A stretch of 27,954 nt of DNA from a virus (Duplodnaviria > Caudoviricetes): the IMG/VR virus record IMGVR_UViG_3300024042_000043, positions 1 to 27,954 of that record; one strand, 5' to 3'. Position 1 is the first letter of the stretch, and every line of letters starts with the position of its first letter. The notes beneath the pieces were generated by a model. The model made no database searches. It was not told the origin of the DNA and worked only from the letters and a program-made list of their open reading frames with translations. Below, one piece after another: positions 960 to 20,047 of the stretch. A program made the translations under genes and the position numbers.

Positions 960-3020
960 ATGAGCAGCTCTCCCTACGAAATACACAACAATCATTACGG
1001 CGTAAGGCTAAGCTTTATTGTCAGCGACCACCATCGCCGACATAAAGAAAGCGTAAAACTATTGGCTTATGATGCCTATAAAAAAAGAGCTTCACGCAAA
1101 GAAGGCTTTAGGCTTAGAGAAGGAAAAGGCTTGGGAAACGAAGCGCTCATCAATTTCGAAAAACTTAGCCTCACCGAACAACAAGCGTTGGTAGACCGAT
1201 GGGGAGAGCCTGCCAAAACAGCCAAGATCCACCAGTTTAAAGATTTCATTGAAGAAGATGCTGCAGCTATCACTTTCTTCAGCGCTTATCGCTTATCAGA
1301 CAAACGCAGTTTACCTAACGATGTAATCCTCGAATACACCACAAACGCCCACGTTTTGAACGCATGCCATACCATTATCACCAACAGTGCCGCACGACGC
1401 AAAGCCATGGGCGGTGTTCGTGCCAATCTTTGGACCAGGCTTACCGATTGCATCATCAACCTTAACAAAAAAGAATTTCCTCACACGCTTCCTGCAAACC
1501 CTCGTCGATTGCAAGAAAAATACAGGAATTACAAAAAGGAAGGCTATACCACTTTGATACACAAAGGATTTTGCAACAACAACAGCCGTAAAGTCACTGT
1601 AGATATCGAAAGGCTGATCCTAAGCCTATATGTACAAAGCAATAAGCCCTATGTTACAGAGGTAGCCAGCGATTATTGGAGGTTTTTGGCGGGTGATATC
1701 GACATTGTAGATTTTAAAACGGGCGAAATATACGATCGCAAGCATTTTTACGAGAATGGGCAGCCGATCACCTTAAGCGAGGCCACCATTTGGAACTACA
1801 TCAACCAACCCTCTAACCGGGCAATTGTTGACAAATACAGGATGGACAGCCAAACTTACCAAAGTGTACACGGCCCACACCATCATCGCCATGCGCCCAA
1901 TTATTCGTTCAGTAAAATTTCAATGGACGACAGGGATCTGCCTAGAAAAACACCAAACGGAAAACGGGTTAAAGCTTATTATGCTTACGATGTGGCCAGT
2001 GGCTGTATCATTGGTTTTGCGCACAGCTTATCTAAAACAACAGACCTGTTTATCAACTGCATGCGCAATATGTTCCATTTCCTAGACTACAACGGTTACG
2101 GAATGCCTTTGCAAGTAGAAGTTGAGCATCACCTGGTAAACAATTTTAAAGATGACCTGATGAAAGCCGGAGTAGTTTTTCCTTTTGTGCGCTGGTGTAA
2201 CGCGGGCAATTCACAGGAAAAATGGGCAGAGACCGGAAACCGAATCAAGAAATACGGTTTCGAAAAAAGACATCAAGACGGGATAGGCCGCTTTTACGCC
2301 AAACTAGAGGCCAACAGAACCAAAAGCGAGAAAATATTTGATGCAGATAATGACAACTACAAAGAAAAAACTTACGCATACGAAGTTTTAGTGGCCGATG
2401 ACCTGGAGATCATAGAGAAGTACAACAATGCGCTACATCCAAACCAAAAAAAATACAAGGACTTAACCAGAGCGCAGGTGCTAAAGATGTACGCAAACCC
2501 GCAAATGGCCCATATCGACAGGCCGCTATTGATGAGATACATTGGAAACAGCACCGCAACAACGATCAGGAGAAATCAATACGTAGCGGTTAGGCAAGCC
2601 AAGTATGCTCTGCCCTCCCCAGAAGTGATGGAACAGCTACTTCCAAATAATTATGAGGTCATCGCCTATCACTTACAGAATGAGCAAAACGAAGTGGATC
2701 ATGTATATCTCTACCAGAATGAAGTCTTCATTTGCAAATGCGACAAAATAAAAGCCTATAACACGGCCAATGCCGAATGGCTTGATCGAGACGTAAATCA
2801 TTACCAGGAACAGGCCAAATACGTTTCGAAGTTCAACCAACAAATTAAAGAGGGTAAAAACGAATTGGGAAGGCTGAAACTGATGGAAAAGATTGGACAT
2901 GAACATGACACTCCCGTAGAGATTATCCTACCAAAAGTGTCCGAGTCCGTCCAAATCATACATTTCGACGAAGAATACGACAACGATTTTAACAAACTAA
3001 ACGCCATTAACTCACTATAA
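960..3020 (+). CDS. MuA-like DDE transposase/integrase
   Basis: 686 aa uninterrupted; RNase-H-like core (ISMDDRDLP...YYAYDVASGCIIG...EVEHHL...NSQEKWAE); immediately upstream of MuB-like ATPase. Confidence 0.85.
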   Translation: MSSSPYEIHNNHYGVRLSFIVSDHHRRHKESVKLLAYDAYKKRASRKEGFRLREGKGLGNEALINFEKLSLTEQQALVDRWGEPAKTAKIHQFKDFIEEDAAAITFFSAYRLSDKRSLPNDVILEYTTNAHVLNACHTIITNSAARRKAMGGVRANLWTRLTDCIINLNKKEFPHTLPANPRRLQEKYRNYKKEGYTTLIHKGFCNNNSRKVTVDIERLILSLYVQSNKPYVTEVASDYWRFLAGDIDIVDFKTGEIYDRKHFYENGQPITLSEATIWNYINQPSNRAIVDKYRMDSQTYQSVHGPHHHRHAPNYSFSKISMDDRDLPRKTPNGKRVKAYYAYDVASGCIIGFAHSLSKTTDLFINCMRNMFHFLDYNGYGMPLQVEVEHHLVNNFKDDLMKAGVVFPFVRWCNAGNSQEKWAETGNRIKKYGFEKRHQDGIGRFYAKLEANRTKSEKIFDADNDNYKEKTYAYEVLVADDLEIIEKYNNALHPNQKKYKDLTRAQVLKMYANPQMAHIDRPLLMRYIGNSTATTIRRNQYVAVRQAKYALPSPEVMEQLLPNNYEVIAYHLQNEQNEVDHVYLYQNEVFICKCDKIKAYNTANAEWLDRDVNHYQEQAKYVSKFNQQIKEGKNELGRLKLMEKIGHEHDTPVEIILPKVSESVQIIHFDEEYDNDFNKLNAINSL

Positions 3021-3022
3021 CC

Positions 3023-3889
3023 ATGATCACACCAGCCATCAAAGAGAAAATCATAGCAGCCATTAGTGTTCAAAGAAAATTATACAGCAGCGATGCCAAA
3101 CAAGCCGTTGCGCTTGGTATTAACTCCGCACAGTTAAACCGTGTTAAAAAGGGCGAATTTGAAAATGTGCTAAGCAATGCCAACTGGATCAGACTAGCAA
3201 GATTGCTGGACATCCAATTTAACGATGTTCCGCAGTGGGTTACCGCAAAAACACCCACCTATAATTTTATTTACCAGCAGTTAAGCGCATGCCAAACCTC
3301 CAGCCTATCAGCCATGCTCTGTGACTTACCCGGCATTGGGAAAACATACACCGCTAGGCAATACGCAAGAGAAAATATCAACGCCATTTATTTGGATTGC
3401 AGCCAGTACAAATCCAAACAGAAACTCACCCGAGCTATTGCAAAAGAATATGGCGTAACCCATACAGGTAGATATAACGAGGTATATAACGACTTAATCT
3501 ACTATCTATTGAGCATCCCTTCTCCCCTCATCATCCTCGATGAGGTTGGCGACCTAGACTATGCTGCCTTTTTAGAGCTAAAAGCACTATGGAATGCCAC
3601 CGACAAATGCTGTGCTTGGTACATGATGGGCGCCGATGGCTTACGTGAAAAGATAGAACGCAACAAGCACCTGAACAAAGTTGGTTATGCCGAAATTTTT
3701 GATCGATATGGCAATAAATACCAGGAAATAGTCCCCCAAGGCAAAGCAGCACGAGAGGAGTTCCTACTCAAACAAGTGAGCCAGGTAGCCAGGGCCAACG
3801 GCATCCAAGACATCCAAAAATTATATGCCAAATCTGGCTACAGCCTTAGAAGAGTTTACATAGAAGTACAAAAATTAAAAGTAGCCTAA
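3023..3889 (+). CDS. MuB-like AAA+ transposition ATPase
   Basis: N-terminal HTH, Walker A (LPGIGKT), Walker B (LIILDEVG); follows transposase. Confidence 0.85.
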   Translation: MITPAIKEKIIAAISVQRKLYSSDAKQAVALGINSAQLNRVKKGEFENVLSNANWIRLARLLDIQFNDVPQWVTAKTPTYNFIYQQLSACQTSSLSAMLCDLPGIGKTYTARQYARENINAIYLDCSQYKSKQKLTRAIAKEYGVTHTGRYNEVYNDLIYYLLSIPSPLIILDEVGDLDYAAFLELKALWNATDKCCAWYMMGADGLREKIERNKHLNKVGYAEIFDRYGNKYQEIVPQGKAAREEFLLKQVSQVARANGIQDIQKLYAKSGYSLRRVYIEVQKLKVA

Positions 3890-4551
3890 TGGAAATGATA
3901 GCACAAACTAAACGAACCAAATCACTTAACGATCTGCCCAGGGCAAAAAGTGCCAAGGAACTGCAAACCATGAAATTTAAAGTATGGTCGTTCGAAGGAA
4001 AATGGAAAGAATTTTTGGGCACGCCAGAAACTACAGGCTGCTGGATGATTTGGGGAAACTCTTTCAACGGCAAAACAAGCTTTGTCCTGCAGCTATGCAA
4101 GTACCTCTCCAGCTTCGAAAATGTCATTTACGATGATTTAGAAGAAGGCTGGTGCCAAGACACGCAAGATGCCGTTAAAGCCGCTGGCCTTGAAAATGTT
4201 GGGAGCAAGTTCCTACATCTCCACAAAGAGCAGTTGCCTCTTTTGAAAAAACGGCTGCAAAAGCACAAAAGCGCCAACATCGTAGTCATCAACAGCCTGC
4301 AATATGCCGAGCTGAACCTTAAAGGATACATGGAATTACGGGCAATGTTCCCCAAAAAGCTTTTTATCCTGATTAGCCATGCCGAAGGAAAACACCCCGA
4401 AGGAAGAATAGCCAAGCGAATCAGATACGACTGCTCCAAAAAAATTAGGGTTGAAGGCTTTAGGGCATTTGCCCAAGTAAGAGGAAAAGGCCTTGGCCAA
4501 TATGATATATGGCCCGAAGGCGCCGCACAATACTGGAACGAACTACAATAA
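3889..4551 (+). CDS. P-loop ATPase (RecA/KaiC-like), Mu-like early gene
   Basis: Walker A GNSFNGKTS, degenerate Walker B VVINSLQY; TAATG coupling with upstream gene. Confidence 0.75.
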   Translation: MEMIAQTKRTKSLNDLPRAKSAKELQTMKFKVWSFEGKWKEFLGTPETTGCWMIWGNSFNGKTSFVLQLCKYLSSFENVIYDDLEEGWCQDTQDAVKAAGLENVGSKFLHLHKEQLPLLKKRLQKHKSANIVVINSLQYAELNLKGYMELRAMFPKKLFILISHAEGKHPEGRIAKRIRYDCSKKIRVEGFRAFAQVRGKGLGQYDIWPEGAAQYWNELQ

Positions 4552-4561
4552 AACACCAACC

Positions 4562-4918
4562 ATGAGAGATTTTAACAAACATGTGAAACAGATGGCCCAA
4601 CACGTTAACGTAAGCGAAGAGTTTATCAACAACCTTTTCCTAGATACTGCCAATGAATTTTTAAAAGACTATACCAACAACGAAAACCTAGCTACGCTAT
4701 GGAAAGCAACCCCAGAATTTTGGGCTTGGTGGCAACAAATATGGATGAACAGAGATCGGATGATTTTAAAACGGTATCCTCATCGTATCACCGCCAGCCA
4801 CCGCAGTGAAATGTACAAAGTATGGCACAGTCCACAGTTTATGCAGGTACGGCCAAGCCTCAAAGTTTATCAGGCTTTCACATTTATCGCAAAACAAAAA
4901 CGAGTATTCATTAAATAA
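4562..4918 (+). CDS. Hypothetical phage protein (118 aa)
   Basis: ATG at 4562, 10 nt after upstream stop; Trp-rich FWAWWQQIW motif. Confidence 0.65.
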   Translation: MRDFNKHVKQMAQHVNVSEEFINNLFLDTANEFLKDYTNNENLATLWKATPEFWAWWQQIWMNRDRMILKRYPHRITASHRSEMYKVWHSPQFMQVRPSLKVYQAFTFIAKQKRVFIK

Positions 4919-4929
4919 ACAATCAACAC

Positions 4930-5133
4930 ATGATCACCAACCAAAAAGTTGCGTACTACCAAGATAGCGAAGTACGCATTATTAACCACAAACACCCACA
5001 TTTTAATGCCCTAGGCAAAGTGTTAAGAGGCGAACAAACCCCAATGGGCTACGGGCTGGTCGTTAAACGATTCGATACCCAAGAGCTCTTCTTCGTATTG
5101 GACGAAAACGACGTAAAGGTCACCAAACGCTAA
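4930..5133 (+). CDS. Small hypothetical protein (possible SH3/KOW-like beta barrel)
   Basis: 67 aa, tight operon spacing. Confidence 0.6.
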   Translation: MITNQKVAYYQDSEVRIINHKHPHFNALGKVLRGEQTPMGYGLVVKRFDTQELFFVLDENDVKVTKR

Positions 5134-5300
5134 TGTTACAGCACCAAATCAAAACGCTCGACACTAAAATACAGGTCAAAGCTGATGAACTAAAAAGCCC
5201 CAAGTTAAGCCCACAGGAGAGATTAACAAAAACCAGAGAGCTGATCGACCTTTTTAAAGAGCAAAACAAATTGTTAAAGCAAATATTTACAAAACCCTAA
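5133..5300 (+). CDS. Small helical hypothetical protein (55 aa; not in ORF track)
   Basis: TAATG overlap with upstream stop; MLQHQIKTLDTKIQVKADELK...QIFTKP*; ends 4 nt before next ATG. Confidence 0.7.
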   Translation: MLQHQIKTLDTKIQVKADELKSPKLSPQERLTKTRELIDLFKEQNKLLKQIFTKP

Positions 5301-5304
5301 GCAC

Positions 5305-5949
5305 ATGAACAACAACACCATCAACGAGTTAAGCACAAAAGAGTTAGAAGCATTATTAATCAGTCGTAAAAAGCAGGAAAACGCAAAGAGAGAAGCCGAT
5401 AAGAAAGTATACGTAGGTCAAAGGGACTATATCATTGATGAGTTGTTCTCAGAAGCGAAGGAATTGGCCCTTTCAGTAGGCAGGTTCAAACAAAAAATGC
5501 ATTCGGCAATGGATCTCCAAAAACAAAAACTGGAAGCATACGGTGCTATCAGAAGCAATAGCAAGGGCGGTTTTTCAATTTTTCACAGTGATGGCATTAC
5601 ACAAATCACCCGCAGAAGAGATACCGACCCCGTTTGGGATGAAAGGGCACATAAAGCTGTTGAGCTCATCAAAGATTTTTTGAGCGATACCGTTAAAAAA
5701 CGTGACGCCAAATTACACAGCATCCTTTTAGGCTTTTTGGAGCGCAATGCCAAAGGCGATTTAGAATACGCCAAGGTAATGGATCTGCTTAACCACGAAG
5801 ATAAGTTTGAAGATGCCCGTTGGTTAGAAGGCCTACGCCTAATCAAAGAAAGTTACTCGCAAAGTTTTAAAGCTTTTGGTTACGAGTTTAAACAGAAAGA
5901 CAACTATGGAAAATGGAAGGCCTTGGCGCTTAATTTTTCTAGCTTGTAA
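5305..5949 (+). CDS. DUF3164-like Mu-type early protein
   Basis: 214 aa, N-terminal coiled coil, C-terminal ..GKWKALALNFSSL resembling DUF3164 proteins of Mu-like prophages. Confidence 0.75.
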   Translation: MNNNTINELSTKELEALLISRKKQENAKREADKKVYVGQRDYIIDELFSEAKELALSVGRFKQKMHSAMDLQKQKLEAYGAIRSNSKGGFSIFHSDGITQITRRRDTDPVWDERAHKAVELIKDFLSDTVKKRDAKLHSILLGFLERNAKGDLEYAKVMDLLNHEDKFEDARWLEGLRLIKESYSQSFKAFGYEFKQKDNYGKWKALALNFSSL

Positions 5950-5978
5950 TTTATCGGTTAATTAACCGATAAATTACA
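5945..5978. repeat. Perfect 34-bp palindrome at end of early operon (hairpin/terminator or binding site)
   Basis: TGTAATTTATCGGTTAA|TTAACCGATAAATTACA, no spacer. Confidence 0.85.
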
Positions 5979-6292: not shown

Positions 6293-6309
6293 AAAGTTAC
6301 TTTAATTAC

Positions 6310-7992
6310 CTATTCAGTACTTTCATCAACCCAAGTAGTTCCGCTCCATCGGTAAGCCATAAAGTGTGACTTGCCGTAAGATATAAATGTCCCTGCTGAG
6401 TTTTGAATTTCTATATAACTCGATGGAAAAGGATCACTGGCTGCTATGGATATAATCTCTACCAAATCTCCGATAGTGGGATTAGCTGGCATCTTAAAAA
6501 CGGTGAGTGACCCTATTTCTGATGGTTTATAAATATACAATTTTTTATACCTAGAGGGAGAGGTTGCTACCGTAACGGTTGTCCCTGAAATATCAGCACC
6601 GTGATAAGCCGCTGTTTGAATGGCTGTCATGGCCAATACCTGCTCCATAGTCACCAACGTACCGGTAACAGCAGGCAACGTTGTGGTTACATTACCCCCC
6701 AACAAATTAGGTTTAATCGTATTTCCTATATTATCCTGAGTTAAGCTTAATGTCGGTACGGCTTCACCCAAATTGACTAAAAAGGCATTATTTTTAGCAG
6801 CAGCATTAAATACGTTACTAGCTATTTGACCAGCACCGAAAGTAGCACTTCCACCATTGCCAATAAACCCTAATTGACCATAATTAATATAAGCATAATT
6901 AGTATTTTCAGAATCAGGGTGTTTAAAAATAAAACCATCCTCACTAGTAAATGTCCCCTCCCCAGTAAACTTTGGGCTATCGGCAGTAATACTTCCAATA
7001 AATATAGCATTACCGTTAACTTCCAATTTTTCACTAATAGGTGTCATACCTATTCCCACATTGCCTGTGAACCTAGTCTCTGCTATAGAGGCATTTAAAA
7101 AATCGGTTATGAATTGGGTTTCGCTTCCTCCTGATATTTTTAAATTATATGGGGTAACAATGTTAAACACATCGCTATTCATAAACATCTTACCCTCATA
7201 CATAAACTCGTCAGGGTTGTACACTTTAAATTCACCATTTACAAACTGGTTACCACTAAACGTATTTCCACCCACTAAATTGGCTTTACCGGTTACGCTG
7301 GGGATTTCAGATGTCAAAGCTAAAGTTCCAGAAGCTGAGGGTAATTGAATATTTGTAGCACCCGATGAAATGGTCTGTCCTCTAAGCACCGTCTCTCCAC
7401 TACCATTGTACCTAAACCGAATACCGTCATTCGAGAAATTGGTTCTTATATTCCCTGATAAATTGGAGAATTGCATCCCGTCTCCCCTCAAATAACCGTT
7501 ATAACTATTGTTTACGCTAGAGAAGCTGACCTGATTATTATTTGGCAAAATTAGCGACCCCATCAACGTCAAGTTCCCATTTTTAGTTTCAGCGCCTGTC
7601 GTATGCAACAATTCAGCATTGTCGGGTATGGAAGGCTTATCCTGCAAATCGTTATAGCTTCTGGCTGGTATCTGATTAATATTGGTGATGTTGGCTGTGG
7701 GAGTATAAGGCACCCAATCCACATCGGTCAATCCCACACCCAATGTATAGGTACTGTCTACGCTGGCCGACTTAACCCGCACCAACATTCCCGCTTTCCT
7801 ACGTGCAGTGGGAATAGCATTTCGCTCTTGCCAACTTGTGGCGGTCATTAAACCACCACGGCCCAAGCTATCAACATGGGTAGGATATTTATCCGTGGCT
7901 CCATTGGGCTCTATCTTGCCCAAAACTTTTACCTGGGCATTCGTGAATTGATAGGCCAGGACTAAAATTAAAATAAGGAGTGTTTTTTTCAT
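6310..7992 (-). CDS. Signal-peptide-bearing tail-fibre-like protein, paralog 1 (inverted orphan)
   Basis: SPI signal (..FTNA|Q); 64-aa N-domain 56/64 identical to 20928 product; fibre-type GKANLVGGNTFSGNQ and LPSASGTLAL motifs. Confidence 0.75.
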   Translation of the reverse strand: MKKTLLILILVLAYQFTNAQVKVLGKIEPNGATDKYPTHVDSLGRGGLMTATSWQERNAIPTARRKAGMLVRVKSASVDSTYTLGVGLTDVDWVPYTPTANITNINQIPARSYNDLQDKPSIPDNAELLHTTGAETKNGNLTLMGSLILPNNNQVSFSSVNNSYNGYLRGDGMQFSNLSGNIRTNFSNDGIRFRYNGSGETVLRGQTISSGATNIQLPSASGTLALTSEIPSVTGKANLVGGNTFSGNQFVNGEFKVYNPDEFMYEGKMFMNSDVFNIVTPYNLKISGGSETQFITDFLNASIAETRFTGNVGIGMTPISEKLEVNGNAIFIGSITADSPKFTGEGTFTSEDGFIFKHPDSENTNYAYINYGQLGFIGNGGSATFGAGQIASNVFNAAAKNNAFLVNLGEAVPTLSLTQDNIGNTIKPNLLGGNVTTTLPAVTGTLVTMEQVLAMTAIQTAAYHGADISGTTVTVATSPSRYKKLYIYKPSEIGSLTVFKMPANPTIGDLVEIISIAASDPFPSSYIEIQNSAGTFISYGKSHFMAYRWSGTTWVDESTE

Positions 7993-8091: not shown

Positions 8092-8093
8092 CT

Positions 8094-8273
8094 ATGACAA
8101 AGACTTATCTAAAAGACCGAAACCAAGCCCTTAGGCGATATTTTGATGATTTATGCAAAAAGCATCCTGAGTGGAGGCTTGATGCGCTGGAAGAAAAAAC
8201 CGCTAAACAGTTTTATATATCCCAACGCACCGTAAGGGCCATCCTTAAAGAGCAAGGTTGCTATGGTGTCTAA
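8094..8273 (+). CDS. Mor/C-like small HTH transcription regulator (putative late activator)
   Basis: 59 aa from ATG 8094; RN..LR..F and C-terminal HTH AKQFYISQRTVRAIL; position between early and late modules. Confidence 0.65.
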   Translation: MTKTYLKDRNQALRRYFDDLCKKHPEWRLDALEEKTAKQFYISQRTVRAILKEQGCYGV

Positions 8274-8285
8274 TACCCAATCTTG

Positions 8286-8768
8286 CTATACAAAACTAAT
8301 GGTGGTAACAGGGTTGGCAACCTCTTGATACCTTGCCGCAGTTCTTTTATAAATGGTAGCAATAAAGGAAAGTTTGTAGGCCAGCAAACCATCCACGTCG
8401 GTTTCTATTGCTTCATCTAAAATTTGCTCCAGAGGCTTAAATAACTCCCCTTTTAAAAACCTCAGCTTCGCTGTGATGGTATCTATCAGGTCCATTGCTA
8501 CTAAAGCGTCTACCCCTTCTACTTCTGGATCTGGATGGGTTTCAAATAAATAAAGAGTGGCCTCAACCAAGGCACTTCCCTCCTGCATTTGCTCACTCAT
8601 GGCGTCCCACTGAATGGAAACCACCTTTACCAAACAAGCCACCGCATATGGCGGATAACTTGCTTTTCCAGGAGCAAACTGGTTACGCTGCAAATCCACA
8701 TATGTCATCTCAGGGATGGTCAGCAGCTCCTCTTTTATCGCTAAATAAATTTCTTTTCTTGGTGTCAT
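8286..8768 (-). CDS. Putative tail completion/terminator protein (Mu gp37-like)
   Basis: 160 aa, acidic; sequence pattern (YVDL...YPP..V..W...YKLSF) and context resemble tail-terminator proteins. Confidence 0.5.
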   Translation of the reverse strand: MTPRKEIYLAIKEELLTIPEMTYVDLQRNQFAPGKASYPPYAVACLVKVVSIQWDAMSEQMQEGSALVEATLYLFETHPDPEVEGVDALVAMDLIDTITAKLRFLKGELFKPLEQILDEAIETDVDGLLAYKLSFIATIYKRTAARYQEVANPVTTISFV

Positions 8769-8796: not shown

Positions 8797-9078
8797 TTAT
8801 CTATAATTTGCTTTCACCACTAGGGTATTTTCGTCACTAAATCTCAGCTCTTCCACCGCCATCCCGTCATATTCAAAATTGCGCCTTGCCTCTATCAGCA
8901 TGGCCACCATTTCTTCACTGTTAATAAGGCTAAGCATCCCTACGCCCAGCTCAGGGAATTGCTTGTATTCGCCTTTCTCAGCAATTAAAATATACTTCTG
9001 GTGATACTCGTCACTAAAGCCTACCATGAGGTCTCCTGCCTCAAATTCCAATTCGTCGTTAATAATAAAATCTTGCAT
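8797..9078 (-). CDS. gp25/GPW-like baseplate wedge / sheath initiator
   Basis: 93 aa; GDL.VG.SD..H...IL...KGEYKQFPELGVG motif typical of gp25-like proteins. Confidence 0.7.
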   Translation of the reverse strand: MQDFIINDELEFEAGDLMVGFSDEYHQKYILIAEKGEYKQFPELGVGMLSLINSEEMVAMLIEARRNFEYDGMAVEELRFSDENTLVVKANYR

Positions 9079-9137
9079 TTTTTGATCTCTGTTTAGGACA
9101 AATCTCCAGCTATTTTAAGAATACAAAAAAAGTTAAA

Positions 9138-9230
9138 GCAATGGTTGTATGGCTTTTACACAATCATTGTAAGTATACTGACAATCACTGTTTGTCGATT
9201 TTTTTAGCGTCCAAAAACGCTCCAATTTTG
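9138..9230. promoter_or_regulatory. Divergent late-promoter region with three 11-bp pseudo-palindromes
   Basis: GCAATGGTTGT (9138), ACAATCATTGT (9160), ACAATCACTGT (9181); degenerate -7 CAATTTTG at 9223-9230. Confidence 0.55.
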
Positions 9231-9349
9231 TATCAACATCACCCCCCAAAACACACGGGTTTTACATTACACGGGTATTTAAAATGGGGTGCCTAAATAA
9301 AGCTTGAACAGCTTAAGTCATCAACCATTAAAAAGTAAAAGCAAATAAA

Positions 9350-9808
9350 ATGAGTAGTTGGATCAGAATAGCACAAAGCCAGTTGGGCGTACAAGAGTTT
9401 CCCAAAGGAAGTAACGCTGGCAAACAAGTAGAAATCTACCTTAAATCGGTAGGCTTGGGCAAAGGATATGCCTGGTGCATGGCTTTTGTATACTGGTGTA
9501 TACAGCAGGCTTTCTCGGCAAAGGGACTAACCCCGCCCTTAAAACGCACCGGAGGTGTGAGAGATCAGTATATCTTTTCGAAAAAATGGGCGGTAAAAGC
9601 TCCGCAGCCTGGCGACATCTTCATGATGATTTACAGCAATGGCTCAGGACACACTGGATTTGTAGAAAAACTTTTGCCAGGAGGATACATCCAAACCCTC
9701 GAAGGAAATACCAACGACGAAGGATCAAGAGAAGGTTACATGGTTTGCAGACGTGTAAGGGCGATATCAACAGTTAACGCCTTTATACGGCTAGAGGAAC
9801 CGCTTTAG
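9350..9808 (+). CDS. CHAP-domain endolysin
   Basis: Catalytic Cys (AWCMAFV), His (GHTGFV) and EGNT motif. Confidence 0.9.
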   Translation: MSSWIRIAQSQLGVQEFPKGSNAGKQVEIYLKSVGLGKGYAWCMAFVYWCIQQAFSAKGLTPPLKRTGGVRDQYIFSKKWAVKAPQPGDIFMMIYSNGSGHTGFVEKLLPGGYIQTLEGNTNDEGSREGYMVCRRVRAISTVNAFIRLEEPL

Positions 9809-10360: not shown

Positions 10361-11530
10361 ATGAGTTTACCAAACATTTCATTTAACATCCTCAATGGAG
10401 GGTTGCTGCAACAACCGGTAACAAGCGACAAAGTTGCGGGCTTAATTTTAACTGGTGCAACTGTTGCAGGCAAAGTTCAAATTGACACGCCTTATCAAGT
10501 GTTTAGCTTGTCGGAAATCGAAGAGCTGGGCATTACCGCTGAAGGGACCAACGCCTTTGCCTACAAACAATTTGAACAGTTTTACACCGAGGCCGGACAG
10601 GGCGCCGAATTATGGTTCATGTTGGTAGCAAGCACCGTTACCTACACCACCATGCTGGATGCAACCACCAACAATGCTGTAAAATTACTTGATGCTTCAA
10701 ATGGCGCTATCCGCGTGTTAGGTGTCGTAAAAACACCTCCTGCAGAAGTAACTGCTACTGAAGGTTTAGACGCCGACGTACATACCGCTGTAGTAAAGGC
10801 ACAGGCTTTAGCAGAGCAGTATGCAACCAAGTTTATGCCTGTAAGAATCGTGATCTCTGGCAACAACTACAGCGGAACCATTGCTGATTTGAAAGATTAC
10901 AAAACAGCTGGATTTAACCGCGTAGCTTGTTTAATTGCCAACACAGACACCAGCAAAGTAGCTGCTGTAGGTTTAGTATTAGGCAGATTGGCCCGTATTC
11001 CAGTACAACGTAACATTGGCCGCGTAGCTGATGGTCCTGCAGAAAGCTTGGCAGCTTATTTCACTAGCGGTGTAAAAGTAGAAAGCCAACAAAGTGGCTG
11101 GGATGCCATCCACAACAAAGGCTACATCTTTTTAAGATCGTTTGTAAGCAAAAGCGGCTATTATTTTAACGATGACACTACGCTTACCGCCGAAACAGAT
11201 GACTTTGTAAGCTTGGCTCGCGGCTTAGTGATTGACAAGAGCATTGTTTTAGGTTATGCCACTTTGGTTGAAAACCTTTTGGACGAAGTAGAGGTAACAG
11301 CTGAAGGAAAAATCCATCCAGCAGTTGTAAAAGGCTGGCAGGCACAAGTGGAGCGAGCATTAGCGACCATGGTAGAAGCAGGAAACCTATCCAATGCCGA
11401 ATGCTATATCGATGAGCAGCAAAACATCCTAAGCACAGGAAAATTAGACGTTGCCATCAGGCTACAGCCCGTTGGTTATGCCAAACAAATTAACGTAAAT
11501 ATCGGATTTACCACCACAATAAATAATTAA
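10361..11530 (+). CDS. Contractile tail sheath protein (DUF2586-like)
   Basis: 389 aa; MSLPNISF..NGGL start, LGRLARIPVQRNIGRV, C-terminal IRLQPVGYAKQINVNIGF typical of sheaths. Confidence 0.85.
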   Translation: MSLPNISFNILNGGLLQQPVTSDKVAGLILTGATVAGKVQIDTPYQVFSLSEIEELGITAEGTNAFAYKQFEQFYTEAGQGAELWFMLVASTVTYTTMLDATTNNAVKLLDASNGAIRVLGVVKTPPAEVTATEGLDADVHTAVVKAQALAEQYATKFMPVRIVISGNNYSGTIADLKDYKTAGFNRVACLIANTDTSKVAAVGLVLGRLARIPVQRNIGRVADGPAESLAAYFTSGVKVESQQSGWDAIHNKGYIFLRSFVSKSGYYFNDDTTLTAETDDFVSLARGLVIDKSIVLGYATLVENLLDEVEVTAEGKIHPAVVKGWQAQVERALATMVEAGNLSNAECYIDEQQNILSTGKLDVAIRLQPVGYAKQINVNIGFTTTINN

Positions 11531-11944: not shown

Positions 11945-12238
11945 ATGAGTAAAGTAACAACCCAACAAATTGCCGAGTGGAAAAAGAAGCACGGCGATAT
12001 TTTTAAAATCACAGTAGATGGCAAAGAAGCCTATTTACATAAGCCAGACAGGAAAACTTTAGGTTATGCCACGTCCCTAGCCGCCAACGAACCCCTAAAA
12101 TTTAACGAGGTTCTTTTAAACAATTGCTGGTTAGGTGGTGATACCGAAATCAAGACAGATGATACCCTGTTCCTGTCGGCATCATCAAAATTGGCAGAGC
12201 TTATCGAGATTAAGAATGCCGAACTGGTAAAGTTGTAG
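11945..12238 (+). CDS. Tail assembly chaperone (gpG-like)
   Basis: 97 aa, IAEWKKKHGDIF motif; between tube and tape measure. Confidence 0.8.
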   Translation: MSKVTTQQIAEWKKKHGDIFKITVDGKEAYLHKPDRKTLGYATSLAANEPLKFNEVLLNNCWLGGDTEIKTDDTLFLSASSKLAELIEIKNAELVKL

Positions 12239-12402: not shown

Positions 12403-12527
12403 AGAAACCCATCGGTTTTACCGTCCCGAACTTTACCAATAGCACGCCCCTCCACTCAACACAATAATTCATTTTTCTAAGCAAGCCGCTTTTCAACAAG
12501 CATCCATTTTCTATAAAAATTACTTCA

Positions 12528-14531
12528 ATGGCCGATATCTCAAGCAATATTTCCTCTTTATCTGATAGAATGTCAAGGTTGATTATTCTGAACGATATTT
12601 TATTAAACCAGTGGAATAGGATTGAAAGAAACTCTCGTATAGTTGCCGGTGCTTTTGACGGGGTGGCCAGATCGGCCGATGCCTTAATTCAAAGGCTTGA
12701 GCGCTTGAGCAATAGTTCGGGTCCATTTTCTGGCATGAGCTTAAGTTACGCCAGAAGCTATAACAACGAGCTAAGCTTAACCAATAGCCAAATGCAGCGC
12801 CTAACCGCCTCGGGCAATACGATAGGAGTTCAGGCGAGTGCTCAGCAAAGCATCAGGAGCTACAGGAATGAAGTAATGGCGCTTAATGTTGAATTTAGAG
12901 GGCTTCAACAAACTCAGGAAAGGGCTGCGGCCGCAGGAGCTACAGCTACACAAGCACCAGCGAGAAGTAGTAGCAAGTTACTCCAAGAAGCAGTCAATAT
13001 CGAAACCAATCCTTACAAAATACTTGGTAATGTAATGAGCGGTGGCATGGAAGCAGATGCACAAAAAGGCAGCTTGTTAGGTGCCGTGAAAGGAGATACA
13101 GAAAAAGCAAAATCTTTATACGACCAACTTTCTGCCTATAGCTTAAAATCGCCTTATGACAAAGCAGAGCTAATAGAAGCACAAAATGCGATGATGAAGT
13201 TGGGCTTAAGTTCTGAAACGGCTTTAGGTAAACTGAAAAACATTGGAGACATTGCGCTTGGAAACGCAGGCAACATGTCGGCATTATCTGATGCCCTCGC
13301 TAAAACTACCGCCAAGGGACAACTACAAAAGGAAGAATACCAGAAGATGAAAGAAGCTGGATTTGATCCTCTGGAGGCCATTAGCAAAAAGACAGGAGAG
13401 AGCATCGAAAGCCTTCAATCACGAATGGCCAATGGCGCCATCAGCGCAAAGGAACTTTCCCAATCCTTCGAATGGGCCACCCAAAAAGGTGGGGACTTTT
13501 ACCAAGGATCGGAAAAGGCTGGTCAAAACCTGGGCACCAAATGGCAGCAAATGCTTCGAGGTGTTTCAGAAGTATCCTTAAAAATTTACGAGCTGATTGC
13601 CCCAGTACTTATGCCTATTGTTTCGGGCATTACCTTTGCTTTCGATAAAATAGCCCAGGGAATTGGCTGGTTCATTGGTCAACTACAAGCAGGCAATCCA
13701 TATGTAATAGCGGCAGCCATTGCCATTGGCTCTTTTGCGGCGGCATTGCTCATCTTTAATGTTTATACAGAATTAGCAGCCATTGCGCAAAACAAATTAT
13801 CCCTAGCATTTCTGAAGAATCCAATAGTATGGGTAATTGCCGCAATTATTGCCCTCATCGCTACCATTGCTTATGTAATTTACAAAACCGATGGCTGGGG
13901 TAAAGCCTGGGGGCATACTGTGAATGCTGCCACATTCATGTGGCAAGCATTCTGCGCCGCAGGTAGGCTACAATGGGACATCATGATTAACGGAATCATG
14001 GTTGGGCTTGATTTGATCAGAAGAGGTTGGTATGTATTTAGGAATAGTGTAGGCCTAGGTGATAGAAAAGAAAATAATGCCGCCATTGCCGAAATAAATG
14101 AAGACATGAGACAACGTGCGGTTGCTGTAGCCCAAGGCGCAGCAAACGTAGTTAGGCTAACTGCAAGTGCTGGACGAGAGATGCGAGCAGCAGCAGGTTC
14201 ATTAAGTTGGAATAGCGGTCGAAGCATCTCAGATCTCACTACAGGATTTAAGAAACAGCTCGGAATGTCTGATGCACCCACTCAACCTGCTGCCACCAAT
14301 GAAAAAGGCACAGGACAAGGAAATCCAGGCAACCCTGTGCAAACCACTACAGACAGCATTACTGGCGGAGGCAGCAGGCCAAGCAGCATCACCATCAACT
14401 TAGGCAAAATGCAAGATCAAATCGTGATCAATACCATTAGCGCAGGAGAAGGTGCCAGCAGCATGCGCCAATTATTAGAAGAAGAATTAAACCGTTTATT
14501 AGGCTCAGTGGCCGCCATGCAAACCACATAA
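12528..14531 (+). CDS. Tail tape measure protein
   Basis: 667 aa, Ala-rich helical, tape-measure core (LGDIA-like GDIALG, KGQLQKEE), hydrophobic segments, Trp periodicity. Confidence 0.9.
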   Translation: MADISSNISSLSDRMSRLIILNDILLNQWNRIERNSRIVAGAFDGVARSADALIQRLERLSNSSGPFSGMSLSYARSYNNELSLTNSQMQRLTASGNTIGVQASAQQSIRSYRNEVMALNVEFRGLQQTQERAAAAGATATQAPARSSSKLLQEAVNIETNPYKILGNVMSGGMEADAQKGSLLGAVKGDTEKAKSLYDQLSAYSLKSPYDKAELIEAQNAMMKLGLSSETALGKLKNIGDIALGNAGNMSALSDALAKTTAKGQLQKEEYQKMKEAGFDPLEAISKKTGESIESLQSRMANGAISAKELSQSFEWATQKGGDFYQGSEKAGQNLGTKWQQMLRGVSEVSLKIYELIAPVLMPIVSGITFAFDKIAQGIGWFIGQLQAGNPYVIAAAIAIGSFAAALLIFNVYTELAAIAQNKLSLAFLKNPIVWVIAAIIALIATIAYVIYKTDGWGKAWGHTVNAATFMWQAFCAAGRLQWDIMINGIMVGLDLIRRGWYVFRNSVGLGDRKENNAAIAEINEDMRQRAVAVAQGAANVVRLTASAGREMRAAAGSLSWNSGRSISDLTTGFKKQLGMSDAPTQPAATNEKGTGQGNPGNPVQTTTDSITGGGSRPSSITINLGKMQDQIVINTISAGEGASSMRQLLEEELNRLLGSVAAMQTT

Positions 14532-14536
14532 AAGAT

Positions 14537-15127
14537 ATGGAACTTTCAATAAAAGAACTCACCGCACTGGCTCACTTAAGCTATATCGCTGCACCCTACC
14601 CTGATTTTGGAGGATTAAAAAAAGATGCCCTGAAAAGAAAAGCCCAGAGTTATTATCTCCATGATGTTTACAATGTCGATCAGCAAGCAGCTTTAGGTCG
14701 ACCATACTTCATGACCTTAGCAGTGCAAAATGGCGAAAAAACAAGGTGGTTTCCTAATGAACCCTTGGTATCTATCTCTCGCAAAAAAACAATAGTAGAA
14801 ACAGCTACCGTGGGCGAAAACCGTACTGGAACAGTAAAGGAATACATCTGTGCCGAAGACTACGAAATTGATATTAAGGGCGTAATTATTGGCGACGATG
14901 ATAGCTATCCCGCCGAAGAAGTAAAAAATCTGAATGATCTTTTCAACCTCAAGGGGACATTAGAAATACAAAAAAATCCGTTTTTCGAGCTTTTTGGCAT
15001 ACAGCGAATCATCCTAAAAACCATCAGTTTCGACGAAATGGTGGGCAAGCAAAGTATCCAAAAATACACGATAAAGGCAGTGAGTGAAGAACCATTTTTT
15101 GCGGAACTAGAAAATAGGAAAAAATAA
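14537..15127 (+). CDS. DUF6046-like tail tube initiator/baseplate protein
   Basis: EPLVSISRKKTIVET...GTVKEYI..EDYEI.IKG motif; follows tape measure. Confidence 0.75.
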   Translation: MELSIKELTALAHLSYIAAPYPDFGGLKKDALKRKAQSYYLHDVYNVDQQAALGRPYFMTLAVQNGEKTRWFPNEPLVSISRKKTIVETATVGENRTGTVKEYICAEDYEIDIKGVIIGDDDSYPAEEVKNLNDLFNLKGTLEIQKNPFFELFGIQRIILKTISFDEMVGKQSIQKYTIKAVSEEPFFAELENRKK

Positions 15128-16104
15128 TGTTTGTTTTAACTGGACACTTTGAAATAGGGAACTATAAGTTCGACGCCATTAATGAGATAGAGATTACCCG
15201 CAGCATCGACGAAATCAGCGGAAGTGCAGTGATCAAAATGCCGTCGAAATTCTTCATCAAGCAAAATGGTGCTTTAAGGTATACCGAAGAGGCAATTACC
15301 GCCGGAGATTCCGTAAAGATCACCATAGGATACAAAGATAAATTGGTGAAACAGGAATTTGTAGGCTTTGTAGACAGCATCAAAACGGGAAATATCATAC
15401 AGATCAATTGCACCGATGGCCTACGACCTTTGAAACGCAAGGATTTCAAATGCAATGAGCAAAAAACTACTCTTGCGAACGTACTTAAGAAAATTGTTGA
15501 GGGAACAGACATCAAACTGTCCGACAAGCTGCCAGAGGTAACTTTGGAAAAGTTTACCCGCAAGGAGGGCAACGCCATGCAGGCCCTCCAATCACTAAAA
15601 GAACAAACGGGTTTGAGCATTTTCCTTAACGACGAAGGCAAGCTACACTGCGGATTACAGCAATTATTCAATATTGGGAAATATGCTGCCTACGATCTCA
15701 ATTACAACATCGTAAAAAACGATTTGCAAATCCGCACCAAAAGCGACAAAAAAATAAAGATCGTTTATACCGCAAAAACCAAAGACAATCAGAAAATCAG
15801 CGTAGAGGCTGGAGACAAGGATGGCGAATTGCAGGAAATTACACAGCAAATGGTTTTGGATGTGGACACCCTAAAACAAATGGCCAATAACCACCTTTCA
15901 AAACTTCAATATGATGGATACGAGGGCGATTTAACCAGCTTTCTAATTCCTTACGCTGCACCGGCAATGGGAGCCAAAATTGTCGACGACAAACGGCCGC
16001 ATCGAAACGGCATCTACCTTATCAAAAAAGTAGTCACCACTTTCGGTACAAGCGGAGCCAGACGAAAAGTAAGTATCGGGAACAAATTAGCCAACGAAAC
16101 ATGA
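15127..16104 (+). CDS. Baseplate hub (gpD/Mu gp44-like)
   Basis: 325 aa; IGY...EFVGFV N-terminus, GIYLIKKVVTTFGTSGARRKV C-terminus; synteny. Confidence 0.8.
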   Translation: MFVLTGHFEIGNYKFDAINEIEITRSIDEISGSAVIKMPSKFFIKQNGALRYTEEAITAGDSVKITIGYKDKLVKQEFVGFVDSIKTGNIIQINCTDGLRPLKRKDFKCNEQKTTLANVLKKIVEGTDIKLSDKLPEVTLEKFTRKEGNAMQALQSLKEQTGLSIFLNDEGKLHCGLQQLFNIGKYAAYDLNYNIVKNDLQIRTKSDKKIKIVYTAKTKDNQKISVEAGDKDGELQEITQQMVLDVDTLKQMANNHLSKLQYDGYEGDLTSFLIPYAAPAMGAKIVDDKRPHRNGIYLIKKVVTTFGTSGARRKVSIGNKLANET

Positions 16105-16592
16105 GTGAGACCATTAGAACAGCTTTAAAACTTATTACCAAACAAGATACCGACACCAATATCATGAAGGTATTATCGGTAGACAAGCAAAACGGCACTT
16201 GCACTTGTGATGATGGGTTTATTACCCATACCGACGTCAGGCTTTCGGCAATCATCGATGAAAAAGCACAAAAGCTTTACATCATCCCCAAGGTAGGCAC
16301 TACGGTACTGGTAACGCCCATTGAAGCCGACTACAACCTCCAGTTTGTAGCCATGGCCAGCGAAGTAGAGGAATTTTATTTAGGCATAGATCAGGTGGTG
16401 TTTGACGTCACCAAAGAAGGTTTCCTGCTCAAAAAGGAAAATGAAACCCTCAGGATGATCATGCTCGACCTCCTATCGGCCATAAAGGCCATGAAATTTA
16501 CCACCAACGTAGGGCCTACCATTGCCCTGGTGAACACCGCCCAATTTACAGGCATTGAAAACAGAGTTAAAGACTTTTTAAAAGCAGATTAA
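16101..16592 (+). CDS. Baseplate central spike (gpV-like OB fold)
   Basis: VLSVD...TC, DVRL, IPKVGTTVLV motifs; ATGA overlap with hub. Confidence 0.7.
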   Translation: MSETIRTALKLITKQDTDTNIMKVLSVDKQNGTCTCDDGFITHTDVRLSAIIDEKAQKLYIIPKVGTTVLVTPIEADYNLQFVAMASEVEEFYLGIDQVVFDVTKEGFLLKKENETLRMIMLDLLSAIKAMKFTTNVGPTIALVNTAQFTGIENRVKDFLKAD

Positions 16593-16811
16593 ATGGCATT
16601 AGATAGCAACAGGTTAAAAGCCAAGATCAAAGAAGCATTTGAAGCCGAGCAGCAGGAGCAAAATGACCATAACACTGCTTTGGATAGGATTGCCGACAAA
16701 TTAGCGCAAGCAATTGTGGAAGAGATTAAACAGCTCAGAATAAACTATAGCAGTGGTTTATTGGCACCAAACGGGGCCGTAACAGGAACAATTAATGCCA
16801 GCATATCCTAA
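16593..16811 (+). CDS. Small baseplate protein (possible spike tip)
   Basis: 72 aa, C-terminal GLLAPNGAVTGTI; directly after spike. Confidence 0.5.
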   Translation: MALDSNRLKAKIKEAFEAEQQEQNDHNTALDRIADKLAQAIVEEIKQLRINYSSGLLAPNGAVTGTINASIS

Positions 16812-17107
16812 TGGAAGAGTTTTTCAAAAATTATGTTAGCGAATTGGCCTTAGCGGTCATTGGTGCTTTTGTGGGCTGGTTCTTTCAGCGCAAAAAACAA
16901 CTTGCCGAACTAAGAGGCAGCGAAATTGAAAACGCAGAAAAGGGATTGCAGTATTACCGCCAAATGGTTGATGACCTGGGCAATCGTTTAACCCAGGCCA
17001 TTGCGGAGCTTAACGCCACCAAAATGGTGATTAAGGAACTGGAAGAAAAGATAGAAGCACTTACAGAAGAGCTAAGGAAATACAAGCAGTTAAACGGGAA
17101 ATTATAA
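16811..17107 (+). CDS. Holin-like membrane protein (1 TM + coiled coil)
   Basis: TM LALAVIGAFVGWFF followed by QRKK and a long heptad coiled coil. Confidence 0.55.
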   Translation: MEEFFKNYVSELALAVIGAFVGWFFQRKKQLAELRGSEIENAEKGLQYYRQMVDDLGNRLTQAIAELNATKMVIKELEEKIEALTEELRKYKQLNGKL

Positions 17108-17397
17108 TGCAGATCAAGGCACAACACAACCAATCGGTTTTAGACTTACTGTTACAGCATACAGGAAGTTTGGCAAGCGCACTCGCCTTTGCCGTGGCCA
17201 ACCAAATGTCCATTACAGACGAACTGGAAATTGGCTCAAGCTATGTTTTACCTGATGGGGTGACTACCGACACGGATATTTTAAATTATTATACCAACAA
17301 CGCCTACAAACCTGCCACAGGCAATGCTGTGATGGTTATTAATACCGATTATGGTATTGGCGAAATGGCAATAGCACAAACATTTATAATAAGATAA
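17107..17397 (+). CDS. LysM-like tail protein (gpX-like)
   Basis: NQSVLDLLLQHTGS...ANQMSITDEL..G..YVLP degenerate LysM. Confidence 0.7.
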   Translation: MQIKAQHNQSVLDLLLQHTGSLASALAFAVANQMSITDELEIGSSYVLPDGVTTDTDILNYYTNNAYKPATGNAVMVINTDYGIGEMAIAQTFIIR

Positions 17398-18236
17398 TGG
17401 CTAGAAGTATAGATCAAATTCAAACAGAAATTATTCAAACGAAAGAGCAAAACCCTGCACTAACGGGGCTCACCAGCACAAGCAAAACTTCCATCTGGCA
17501 GCTAATTACTTATGTGGTTGCCTATGCCATTTATACTTTGGAGGTATTGTTTGACACCCATAAGGCCGAAACCGATAGCGCAATTGCTTTGTTAAAACCC
17601 CACACCAAACGCTGGTACAGGCAAAAAGCGCTCGACTTCCAATATGGCTTCGACCTAGTGGAAGATAGCGACAAATACAACAACGCTGGTGCAGAAGCCG
17701 ATGTTATTGACCAAAGTAAGATCATTAAGTATGCTGCCGTAACAGAAGCAACAGACCAAAGCAGGGTAATTATTAAAATTGCAACGGAAACCGATGGAAA
17801 ACTAAGCCCCATTGAACCAGAACAAAAGTTCGCCTTTGATGCCTACATCAATGAAATAAAGGATGCGGGTGTAAGTGTAAATGCCATTAATTTCCAGCCG
17901 GATAAGCTTTACCTTAACATGAAAATCTTTTATGATCCTTTGGTGTTAGACGCCCAGGGGAACAGCATTATCAGTGGAGGCAGACCCGTAGAAGACGCTA
18001 TTTTCAACTACTTGAAGAACTTGCCCTTTGATGGTCAACTGGTGTTGGCACACTTGGTAGATGCGCTTCAAAAAGTACAAGGGGTACTCATCCCCCATTT
18101 GGATAGCGCCGAAAGTGCCTGGATAGACGGAACCATTAACAATTACGGTCCCGCAGCACCCATTGATGTGAGAGTAACTCCCGCATCCGGATACTTTGAG
18201 GTGGTAAACTTTAACAACATCAGCTATGTGGTATAA
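17397..18236 (+). CDS. Baseplate J-like wedge protein
   Basis: MARSIDQIQ start, YINEIKDAGV, YLKNLPFDG..LVDALQKVQGV; synteny. Confidence 0.8.
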   Translation: MARSIDQIQTEIIQTKEQNPALTGLTSTSKTSIWQLITYVVAYAIYTLEVLFDTHKAETDSAIALLKPHTKRWYRQKALDFQYGFDLVEDSDKYNNAGAEADVIDQSKIIKYAAVTEATDQSRVIIKIATETDGKLSPIEPEQKFAFDAYINEIKDAGVSVNAINFQPDKLYLNMKIFYDPLVLDAQGNSIISGGRPVEDAIFNYLKNLPFDGQLVLAHLVDALQKVQGVLIPHLDSAESAWIDGTINNYGPAAPIDVRVTPASGYFEVVNFNNISYVV

Positions 18237-18696
18237 AATAGACATCAATAAACTGGTTGTTCTCCTTACTCCCACTTTTCTCCGTAAGGCTAGCTTGCTG
18301 GCTTGGCTACAAACCCTGGTTACACCCATTGCCTCCGTACACCAGCTATGGCTATTGAATAGAGAAAACAACTTAAAACGCCTTCAGCATAATGGTCAGG
18401 TTTGCTATTTAAGGAAAGCCTTAAATGATGCTTTTGACACAGAATTACGTCGCATTACCCTCACTGAAGGAAACAGATATACACGCAGATACATTTACAC
18501 CAACATTGAGCAGCAAGCGCAGTATTTAGGCACAAAGTACCTCAGACAGAGCGCAGATTATGCCGATACGGGCGTAGATTTTAGAGTAGTAGTTCCGAAA
18601 GGATTTGATTTAACAAACAATAAATACCAGCTACAAGCCTTAGTTGACTTTTACAAGCTGGCAGGAAAAAGATATATAATTGAAGTAAATGAATAA
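18226..18696 (+). CDS. Baseplate wedge protein (gpI-like)
   Basis: HNGQVCYLRKALNDAFD, DFRVVVP, YKLAGKRY motifs; follows J-like gene. Confidence 0.7.
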   Translation: MWYKIDINKLVVLLTPTFLRKASLLAWLQTLVTPIASVHQLWLLNRENNLKRLQHNGQVCYLRKALNDAFDTELRRITLTEGNRYTRRYIYTNIEQQAQYLGTKYLRQSADYADTGVDFRVVVPKGFDLTNNKYQLQALVDFYKLAGKRYIIEVNE

Positions 18697-19522
18697 CGTG
18701 CTTTTACAACAAACGGGTGGTTTTCCGTTGGAAACCGACACGTTAAATTTTATGCAAAATGCCTATAGCTTCCTACAGCATATGGCCGCTCTTGGAGGCG
18801 ACAACTACATTTTATCGGGATGCGCCGTCACAGGATCTACCGTAAGCAATGGCGTTGTAGTGATTGCCGGCGAAGTTTTAGAATTTAGAGGCGGTCTTAT
18901 ACAATCTACAGTGGTTGTAAGAGAAGACAAAGCCTCCAGACCTTTTGAAAGTGGACAAGTGAAAGACGTGTACTTTACCAGATATGTCACTTTCGGTACG
19001 GGTACAGGAACCATCGCTTGGGACAGCCTAGTTCGCTTTAAGCCACTATTGGCCTTTAAAGATTTACCTACTGAAAAAAGCAATGCCATTGATTTGGACG
19101 ATGAGAACAAACTGGCCACCGCTAAAGCAGTAAAACTATTGAACGACAAGGTAGAAAGTAGACTACCATCTGGAGCCATCATCATCTGGAGCGGCAGTAT
19201 TACGGCCATTCCTACTGGATTTGCACTCTGCGATGGACAAGGCGGTCGCCCTGATTTGAGAGATAAATTCGTATTGGGAGCTGGTTTGGGTTATGGTGTT
19301 GGCGCAACAGGTGGGGAAAAGGAACATCGACTAACCATTGACGAAATGCCTTCACACAACCACTCCTATACAGAACGAGTGATGGGTGGCGGAGGTGATA
19401 AAATCTTCGACAATGCAAACAGACACTATGTGGAAGGGCGTACCACAGGTAATACAGGAGGGAACATGCCCCACAATAATATGCCGCCATACTATTCATT
19501 GGCTTACATCATTAAATTATAA
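18689..19522 (+). CDS. Short tail fibre / tail-collar domain protein
   Basis: GGFPLETDTL baseplate-anchoring N-terminus; collar motif PSGAIIIWSG..IPTGFALCDG..PDLRDKF; HNNMPPYYSLAYIIKL. Confidence 0.8.
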   Translation: MNNVLLQQTGGFPLETDTLNFMQNAYSFLQHMAALGGDNYILSGCAVTGSTVSNGVVVIAGEVLEFRGGLIQSTVVVREDKASRPFESGQVKDVYFTRYVTFGTGTGTIAWDSLVRFKPLLAFKDLPTEKSNAIDLDDENKLATAKAVKLLNDKVESRLPSGAIIIWSGSITAIPTGFALCDGQGGRPDLRDKFVLGAGLGYGVGATGGEKEHRLTIDEMPSHNHSYTERVMGGGGDKIFDNANRHYVEGRTTGNTGGNMPHNNMPPYYSLAYIIKL

Positions 19523-19525
19523 TTT

Positions 19526-20047
19526 ATGGCAAAGCAAACATTAAATATCATTAAAAACTGGTTTAAAACTGGTTTAAAGCCAACACAAGCGCAGTTTTGG
19601 GATACTTGGGACAGCTTTTGGCATAAAGACGAAACCATCCCCGCAAGTAGTATCGAAAATTTGGATGCCCGATTTAACCAAAAAGCAGATCAGGAGGCCT
19701 TTCAATCGCACTTGTTAGACACCGACGCACATGGCATTTCCGCAAAAGCAAACACAGCAGATCTATTGGCAGAGACACAAGCCCGGGAACAAGCCGATCA
19801 AGCTTTAGCACTTCAAATTGCCGAAATGCAAGGTGAAGTCATTGTGCTCAACCGATTGGGAGAAGATGTAGATGCCAATGGTGATTTAGATCTTTCTTCA
19901 GAAGAGCTGCCCCAGTATCCAAGACAACCAGCCGTTTATGTAGATGAAGTGGCTGGTAGCTGGCAAATACAATACAATAAATCAACTAAAGTATTAACAG
20001 GGCTGTACGGCATCTCACCAGAGGCCACAATCGAAATTATTTTCTAA
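19526..20047 (+). CDS. Short tail-fibre attachment-domain protein (possible adaptor)
   Basis: KNWFKTGLKPTQAQFWDTWDSFWHK N-domain resembles Bacteroidota phage fibre N-termini; only 173 aa, no signal peptide. Confidence 0.65.
   Translation: MAKQTLNIIKNWFKTGLKPTQAQFWDTWDSFWHKDETIPASSIENLDARFNQKADQEAFQSHLLDTDAHGISAKANTADLLAETQAREQADQALALQIAEMQGEVIVLNRLGEDVDANGDLDLSSEELPQYPRQPAVYVDEVAGSWQIQYNKSTKVLTGLYGISPEATIEIIF

Follow-up and report, generated by a model that had tools for sequence, protein, structure and literature searches.

The window analysed here, which is the whole of IMG/VR record IMGVR_UViG_3300024042_000043 (27,954 bases), carries a genuine and conserved phage-derived locus of a variant that appears to be undescribed, namely a head-less Mu-like tail locus whose transposition machinery is under selection. 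Our favoured explanation, which we hold with moderate confidence, is that this element descends from a Mu-like myophage of Bacteroidota, has lost the head and is most likely an R-type tailocin, and that its locus would probably amplify itself by replicative transposition when induced. Unlike the tailocins described so far, it would then probably still be copying and occasionally moving its own DNA. The putative tailocin function is read from the anatomy of the locus.

Head-less loci form one clade in Pedobacter

Among named records, the nearest relatives of the window were two from Pedobacter and one labelled Bacteroidetes, which the genus search grouped with them. A survey in which 235 Pedobacter genomes were searched with the sheath gave matches in 17/235, of which 8 stood at 70-94% identity, and all 8 were head-less with MuA and MuB. 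This layout is kept in these 8 genomes plus contig L003, and the head-less loci together with the window form one starred clade of the sheath tree (9 rows), with no member seen outside Pedobacter in a 401-genome sample of the family.

Upstream of lysin and sheath, headed relatives have genes for MuG, MuF, portal, gp36, terminases, protease and capsid, and this head slot measures 271 bp in the window and 201-273 bp in 9/9 head-less loci. Seventy head and packaging seed proteins from headed relatives gave no match in the window (0/70 at E<=1e-3) nor in the nine head-less loci including their flanks (0/70 at E<=1e-4); the small-terminase seeds were among them, and adaptor, neck and small terminase are gone from the element. 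The original prediction, that no head genes are present and that there is no room for decayed ones, was thus borne out. The absence of the head is real, and head loss in this clade had a single origin. One possible capsid gene, at 11532-11942 and bearing a PHROG 'major head protein' label, was ruled out by its tube fold and by synteny, and headed relatives carry its homologue plus a separate capsid gene.

Transposition genes and DNA ends are conserved

MuA, MuB and sheath genes are full length in 9/9 head-less loci, and the MuA- and MuB-like genes of the window are, as predicted, complete open frames with family matches (Table 1). Over 10 pairs, the ratio of nonsynonymous to synonymous substitution rates (dN/dS) was 0.04-0.11 for MuA, 0.03-0.07 for MuB and 0.04-0.10 for the sheath. 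Medians for flank genes spanned 0.026-0.083 over four pairs; 2 of the 17 genes in the G060-G061 flank set belonged to the element, and the G118-G221 set had three genes only. Tail and transposition module are both under purifying selection, and with conservation in 8/235 genomes and conserved ends this upholds the earlier view that the locus is not decaying.

The acidic motifs of MuA, for which we infer a catalytic role, are identical to those of the headed sisters G196 and G205 (65-73% to their MuA overall). MuB of the window subgroup groups with that of headed G196, and the repressor is 47% identical to G196's, an affinity that shows exchange between the element and active phages. In the seven head-less relatives with both ends, these are conserved 23-bp imperfect inverted repeats, common to the headed sisters too; the ends were thus located in relatives rather than in the window sequence itself. 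Where TG...CA ends with a 5-bp duplication had been expected, those of the element family are mostly TA...TA. G196 (L038-L040) and G205 (L042-L044) are each a headed, transposable prophage that has TATA ends and is flanked by an exact 4-bp target duplication, as against the 5-6 bp described for others; the 4-bp figure comes from these two examples, and a reading shifted to 5 or 6 bp requires a mismatch in each case. Element size is 23.2-33.3 kb, compared with 37 kb in these two sisters.

A triple 12-bp direct repeat lies 190-320 bp inside the left end in all relatives; it is the most conserved non-coding block and is subgroup-specific. A role as packaging signal was unsupported, the repeat being shared without change by two headed phages with small terminases of just 27% identity.

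Tail, lysis and fibre genes

A complete contractile tail set, including the terminator cap, is present. Of the tail parts originally named, sheath, tape measure, hubs and collar were identified by family, the tube by fold and the J-like wedge (17397-18236) through its homologues, whereas spike, second wedge and chaperone are positional assignments. For these three, the gp25-like gene and the 'Mor-like' gene, no named-family match was obtained. The model of the 136-aa tube protein (mean pLDDT only 65) matched tail tubes with a best Z of 12.2, at a root-mean-square deviation of 4.0 over 123 aligned residues. The terminator resembles the Mu terminator and the pyocin R2 and diffocin collar structures, and searches of PDB sequences with terminator and tube alignments gave no match. 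The repressor (S24 family) and the CHAP lysin were both found as predicted, the former at 1-678 and so before the position 960 at which the element had been thought to begin. As for the other regulators, a helix-turn-helix (HTH) protein does lie at 756-956, but its Ner label is positional, and the Mor family of the later gene is unconfirmed.

Fibres and tape measure vary strongly among relatives. The tape measure is 34% identical to that of G002/G003, whose neighbouring genes exceed 90%, and chaperone plus tape measure (11945-14531) are exchanged as a block among close relatives (60% and 34% identity amid >90%). Five fibre-region proteins of the window, one at 6310-7992 and four in 20047-27954, start with Bacteroidota-type secretion signals. 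The fibre body of the 1032-aa protein (residues 110-578) occurs in G135 behind a signal-free anchor, so that fibre modules evidently pass from secreted to cytoplasmic anchors or the reverse. Signal-peptide fibres as a hallmark of head-less elements were ruled out, as headed G186 and G164 have one.

Insertion sites and past mobility

The clade, for which one genome per carrier species was available, occupies four chromosomal sites, A (G001-G003), B (G060, G061), C (G118, G221) and D (G135), and this supports relocation after head loss in the past. Comparison of insertion sites across relatives, proposed as a check, also revealed element-free genomes: site A was free in 7/7 syntenic relatives (8 fetched) and site B clean in G096, and no precise empty site was found at either, both being variable spots. 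Site C (G118 and G221 flanks, L025-L030) falls within a variable island that also holds restriction-modification-like and other defence-like genes, as judged from sequence.

At the left end, identity falls in 5/5 same-site pairs from 0.68-0.85 inside to 0.35-0.47 outside (shuffle mean 0.44, max 0.58). Mu transposase makes deletions next to its own ends, and the step fits transposase-made deletions adjoining the ends. A large deletion by the left end of G221 was set aside as merely a hint (a 75% match 270 kb away in G118). In the gyrB tree, which is weak at depth and in which the gyrB of G073 looks aberrant, carriers are interleaved with non-carriers, a pattern that reflects many losses or lateral transfer; the element tree broadly tracks host groups.

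The window is identical over 21,167/21,167 bases to a 642-kb metagenome contig. A contig from the likely source run links a right end with the site-A flank, and depth is 22.2 in the flank and 20.8 in the element, from which we infer that the window sits at site A in single copy. An RNA-labelled run was rejected as expression evidence, given its contigs of up to 139 kb and pieces matching the DNA run.

Repeated head loss in the phage family

Two further lineages, one formed by G021 and L203 and the other by G026, lack the head and have MuA/MuB, and they stand elsewhere in the sheath tree. The groups lie on starred branches and are separated by headed rows, which suggests, with phage mosaicism as a caveat, that these lost their heads independently yet kept MuA/MuB, so that the state arose three times. 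Between G021 and L203, MuA shows a nonsynonymous proportion (pN) of 0.195 versus a synonymous one (pS) of 0.81. The sisters of G026, G065 and G024, have no MuA/B and share one site, with G026 at another.

Head-less loci without MuA/B, which in this respect resemble classical tailocins, comprise G203, G503, G065, G024, L209, L151, L168 and L179. Among 83 further viral loci, 53 were headed, 18 too short, 5 without a sheath call, 2 head-less with MuA (one being G026) and 5 head-less without MuA. G203 (L053-L054), G503 (L047-L048), G065 (L130-L131), G024 (L223-L224) and L209, which come from Sphingobacteriaceae or related records, are candidate classical tailocins. In four records of another group (L151, L168, L178, L179) a head-less tail locus occupies one common site adjoining a gene that we take to be patatin-like. 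A tape-measure-like gene has apparently relocated to the reverse strand beside the terminator in G021 (L127-L129), L203 and G203. No terminator homologue was detected in G026, G065 and G024, so that the tails of this lineage may be capped differently.

Gene map of the window

All genes named in the original prediction are open frames (Table 1), in the order repressor, HTH protein, MuA, MuB, ATPase, small genes, DUF3164, reverse-strand fibre-like gene, small HTH-like gene, terminator and gp25-like gene (both reverse), lysin and tail operon. The element does not end at 20047, as had been proposed, and runs on through four further fibre-region genes to 27954; the gene at 6310-7992 is likewise an addition. 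Both termini of the window fall at stop codons, which marks it as a provirus call trimmed to genes, and both element ends lie just outside it. NCBIfam gave no useful names, and a promoter scan stayed at chance level. A 34-bp palindrome at 5945-5978, 3' of DUF3164, breaks assemblies.

Table 1. Features of the window with their positions, strands and the basis of each assignment.
Feature	Position	Strand	Basis
CI-like repressor, S24 autocleavage domain, likely SOS-inducible	1..678	-	phrog_4 (E 2e-22), PF00717
Ner/Cro-like HTH protein	756..956	+	HTH matches; Ner label positional
MuA-like transposase, 686 aa	960..3020	+	phrog_310 (E 3e-43); alignment; dN/dS 0.04-0.11
MuB-like AAA transposition protein	3023..3889	+	phrog_296 (E 1e-36), AAA_22; dN/dS 0.03-0.07
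Second early ATPase	3889..4551	+	phrog_6891
Three small early genes (141, 67, 55 aa), no assigned function	4493..5300	+	conserved in relatives
DUF3164 protein	5305..5949	+	PF11363
Signal-peptide fibre-like paralogue in moron position; body differs among strains	6310..7992	-	
Small HTH-like protein, conserved; likely activator of late genes (Mor family unconfirmed)	8094..8273	+	
Tail terminator (Mu gp37 / pyocin collar fold), sole neck gene kept	8286..8768	-	
gp25-like wedge protein	8797..9078	-	positional; homologues in baseplate block of headed phages
271-bp divergent intergenic slot; site of head/packaging block in headed relatives	9079..9349	.	
CHAP endolysin	9350..9808	+	PF05257
145-aa protein, no assigned function, site-A subgroup only	9920..10357	+	
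Contractile sheath (DUF2586)	10361..11530	+	family matches
Tail tube, 136 aa	11532..11942	+	fold match; phrog_4579
Likely tail assembly chaperone	11945..12238	+	positional; phrog_19076 (unknown function)
Tape measure protein	12528..14531	+	TMP_3
Two baseplate hub proteins	14537..16104	+	DUF6046; phrog_4930
Likely spike, plus three small genes of which one is weakly holin/spanin-like	16101..17397	+	positional
Baseplate J-like wedge and likely second wedge protein	17397..18696	+	homologues match Baseplate_J
Collar-domain tail fibre protein	18689..19522	+	phrog_1800, phrog_8469
173-aa likely fibre anchor/adaptor; N-terminal domain heads several relatives' fibres	19526..20047	+	
Four signal-peptide proteins (290, 808, 1032, 450 aa), likely receptor-binding array	20047..27954	+	last three: common phage-type N-terminal domain, strain-variable bodies

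A proposed transposable tailocin and its alternatives

The combination of a putatively inducible repressor, a likely activator, terminator, lysin, tail and variable fibres matches the tailocin pattern and recurs in the transposase-free loci. In the mechanism that we propose, DNA damage would lead to cleavage of the S24 repressor, and MuA and MuB would copy the locus in a cell already doomed to lyse, giving a higher tail-gene dosage. Replication may also feed late transcription, which in phage Mu is tied to the replication clamp according to PMC12867686. Terminator-capped tails with variable fibres would be released and kill related strains, and rare survivors of partial induction would carry the element at new sites and with replaced DNA adjoining its ends.

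Several observations weigh against this explanation. A target-site duplication was present in 0/7 head-less elements with both ends, as opposed to 2/2 headed sisters (G196, G205), and each genome holds one close MuA copy, so that no recent jump was caught; the same site is common to species at synonymous divergence (dS) up to about 1. With one copy per genome, sites shared across species and no target duplications, ongoing spread is weaker than first proposed, and of the claim that the element still transposes it is past relocation that stands. The likely source run showed no amplification in that sample. The identity step in the flanks could partly be fast intergenic drift in the older pairs (dS 0.5-1), and at the right end four pairs fall to 0.38-0.55 and the G060-G061 flank is still homologous at 0.73. 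A holin was not firmly identified (a weak match only), fibres with secretion signals poorly fit cytoplasmic tail assembly, and in G118 the wedge gene is split and the collar gene shortened beside an intact MuA, through decay or sequencing error. Finally, G065 and G024 keep a tail locus without MuA/B, and transposition is therefore not needed to keep one.

The main rival, which we judge unlikely, is a transposable satellite or hitchhiker that relies on its own MuA/B for replication and on a headed Mu-like helper for packaging, either in whole helper virions or in helper heads joined to its own tail. The element would fit within the genome length of the headed sisters and has similar ends, its MuB and repressor imply that it and G196's lineage met in one cell, carriers and non-carriers interleave, and element dS lies under flank dS in two pairs. 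However, a Mu-type portal was found in 0/8 host genomes with 2/2 controls positive (the search being confined to Mu-type genes and some of the host genomes being drafts), and the large terminase of a relative as query likewise gave 0/8 with both controls positive. Adaptor, neck and small terminase are lost, the closest headed-phage terminators are only ~30% identical to the element's, and the element keeps its own lysin and repressor. Fresh insertions are lacking, the element tree follows host groups, and the triple left-end repeat is probably not a packaging signal. The earlier alternative of a tail-only satellite borrowing heads therefore finds no direct support.

It is improbable that the element is an ordinary tailocin in transition, with MuA/B being lost, or retained solely to regulate or to kill the host while no true copying takes place. 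Such a course is illustrated by the MuA-less sisters G065 and G024 next to G026 and would suit the fixed sites, single copies and missing target duplications, but it sits poorly with full-length MuA/MuB in every locus, with host-gene-like dN/dS across 30% protein divergence, with two conserved ends and with a second lineage that retains MuA under the pN and pS values given above.

We see little likelihood, too, in a contractile or adhesive device aimed through its secreted fibre-like proteins at something other than related bacteria, for example at surface or host contact. No effector or extracellular contractile injection system (eCIS) family was among the Pfam matches of 33 proteins, no dedicated eCIS profile search having been run, and headed G186 and G164 likewise have a signal-peptide gene in the corresponding position, which makes this a trait of phage origin; what speaks for such a device is the number of signal-peptide proteins (five per window, one in moron position) and an ant metagenome as the likely source. 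A simple decaying prophage is very improbable, for although head blocks are commonly lost in a single deletion and G118 has broken tail genes, the same deletion junction in 9/9 loci, the strong purifying selection and the four sites all speak against it.

Returning to the self-amplifying tailocin, we tentatively raise a broader possibility, in which we have distinctly less confidence: a self-replicating transposable tailocin island may be a new class of mobile element, one that would amplify on induction, pay its host with a killing tail, travel among Pedobacter strains in the heads of related Mu-like phages, have arisen at least three times in one family and form a step between transposable phage and fixed tailocin. 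Phage, transposable tail locus and fixed tail locus make a natural series for studying phage domestication, which also bears on whether self-amplification increases weapon yield, and a further puzzle open to testing is posed by the tail-region proteins that bear secretion signals.

Comparison with known systems

Among transposable phages, the Bacteroidota Mu-like phages (G196, G205, G235, L005, L006) resemble the element in early module, end motifs and gene order, but carry the whole head and packaging block. Leptospira transposable prophages, as described in PMC8705779, have TA-TA ends like the element's but are headed, 38-40 kb long and flanked by 6-bp duplications, and the same paper places transposable Mu-like phage genomes at 36-39 kb. 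Set beside such phages, the element has MuA, MuB and terminal sites, and its head genes, a 36-39 kb size and a target duplication are absent. Phage-inducible chromosomal islands that form capsids encode heads and borrow tails, which would make them the mirror image of the element if the satellite explanation held. These islands use integrases.

No description of a transposase-bearing tailocin, or of any Pedobacter tailocin, was found at title and abstract level, with subscription journals outside the scope. The syringacin of Pseudomonas syringae, an R-type tailocin, likewise has a Mu-like contractile tail with lysis and regulatory genes kept and the head lost; by the account in PMC4542187, all its replication genes are gone and it occupies one locus, trpE-trpG, whereas the element, of another phylum and sheath family, has MuA, MuB, ends and four sites. 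R-type pyocins and diffocins match the element in the folds of terminator/collar and tube, and are without transposase by the definition in PMC12090994, in contrast to the element, which has MuA and MuB genes and whose killing activity is putative. That review defines tailocins as being without nucleic-acid replication genes, and in its accessible part the words 'transpos' and 'Bacteroid' do not occur. With MuA/MuB intact and selected, the element falls outside that definition: tailocins are described as losing replication along with the head, and here a selected head-less locus keeps transposition machinery that looks live.

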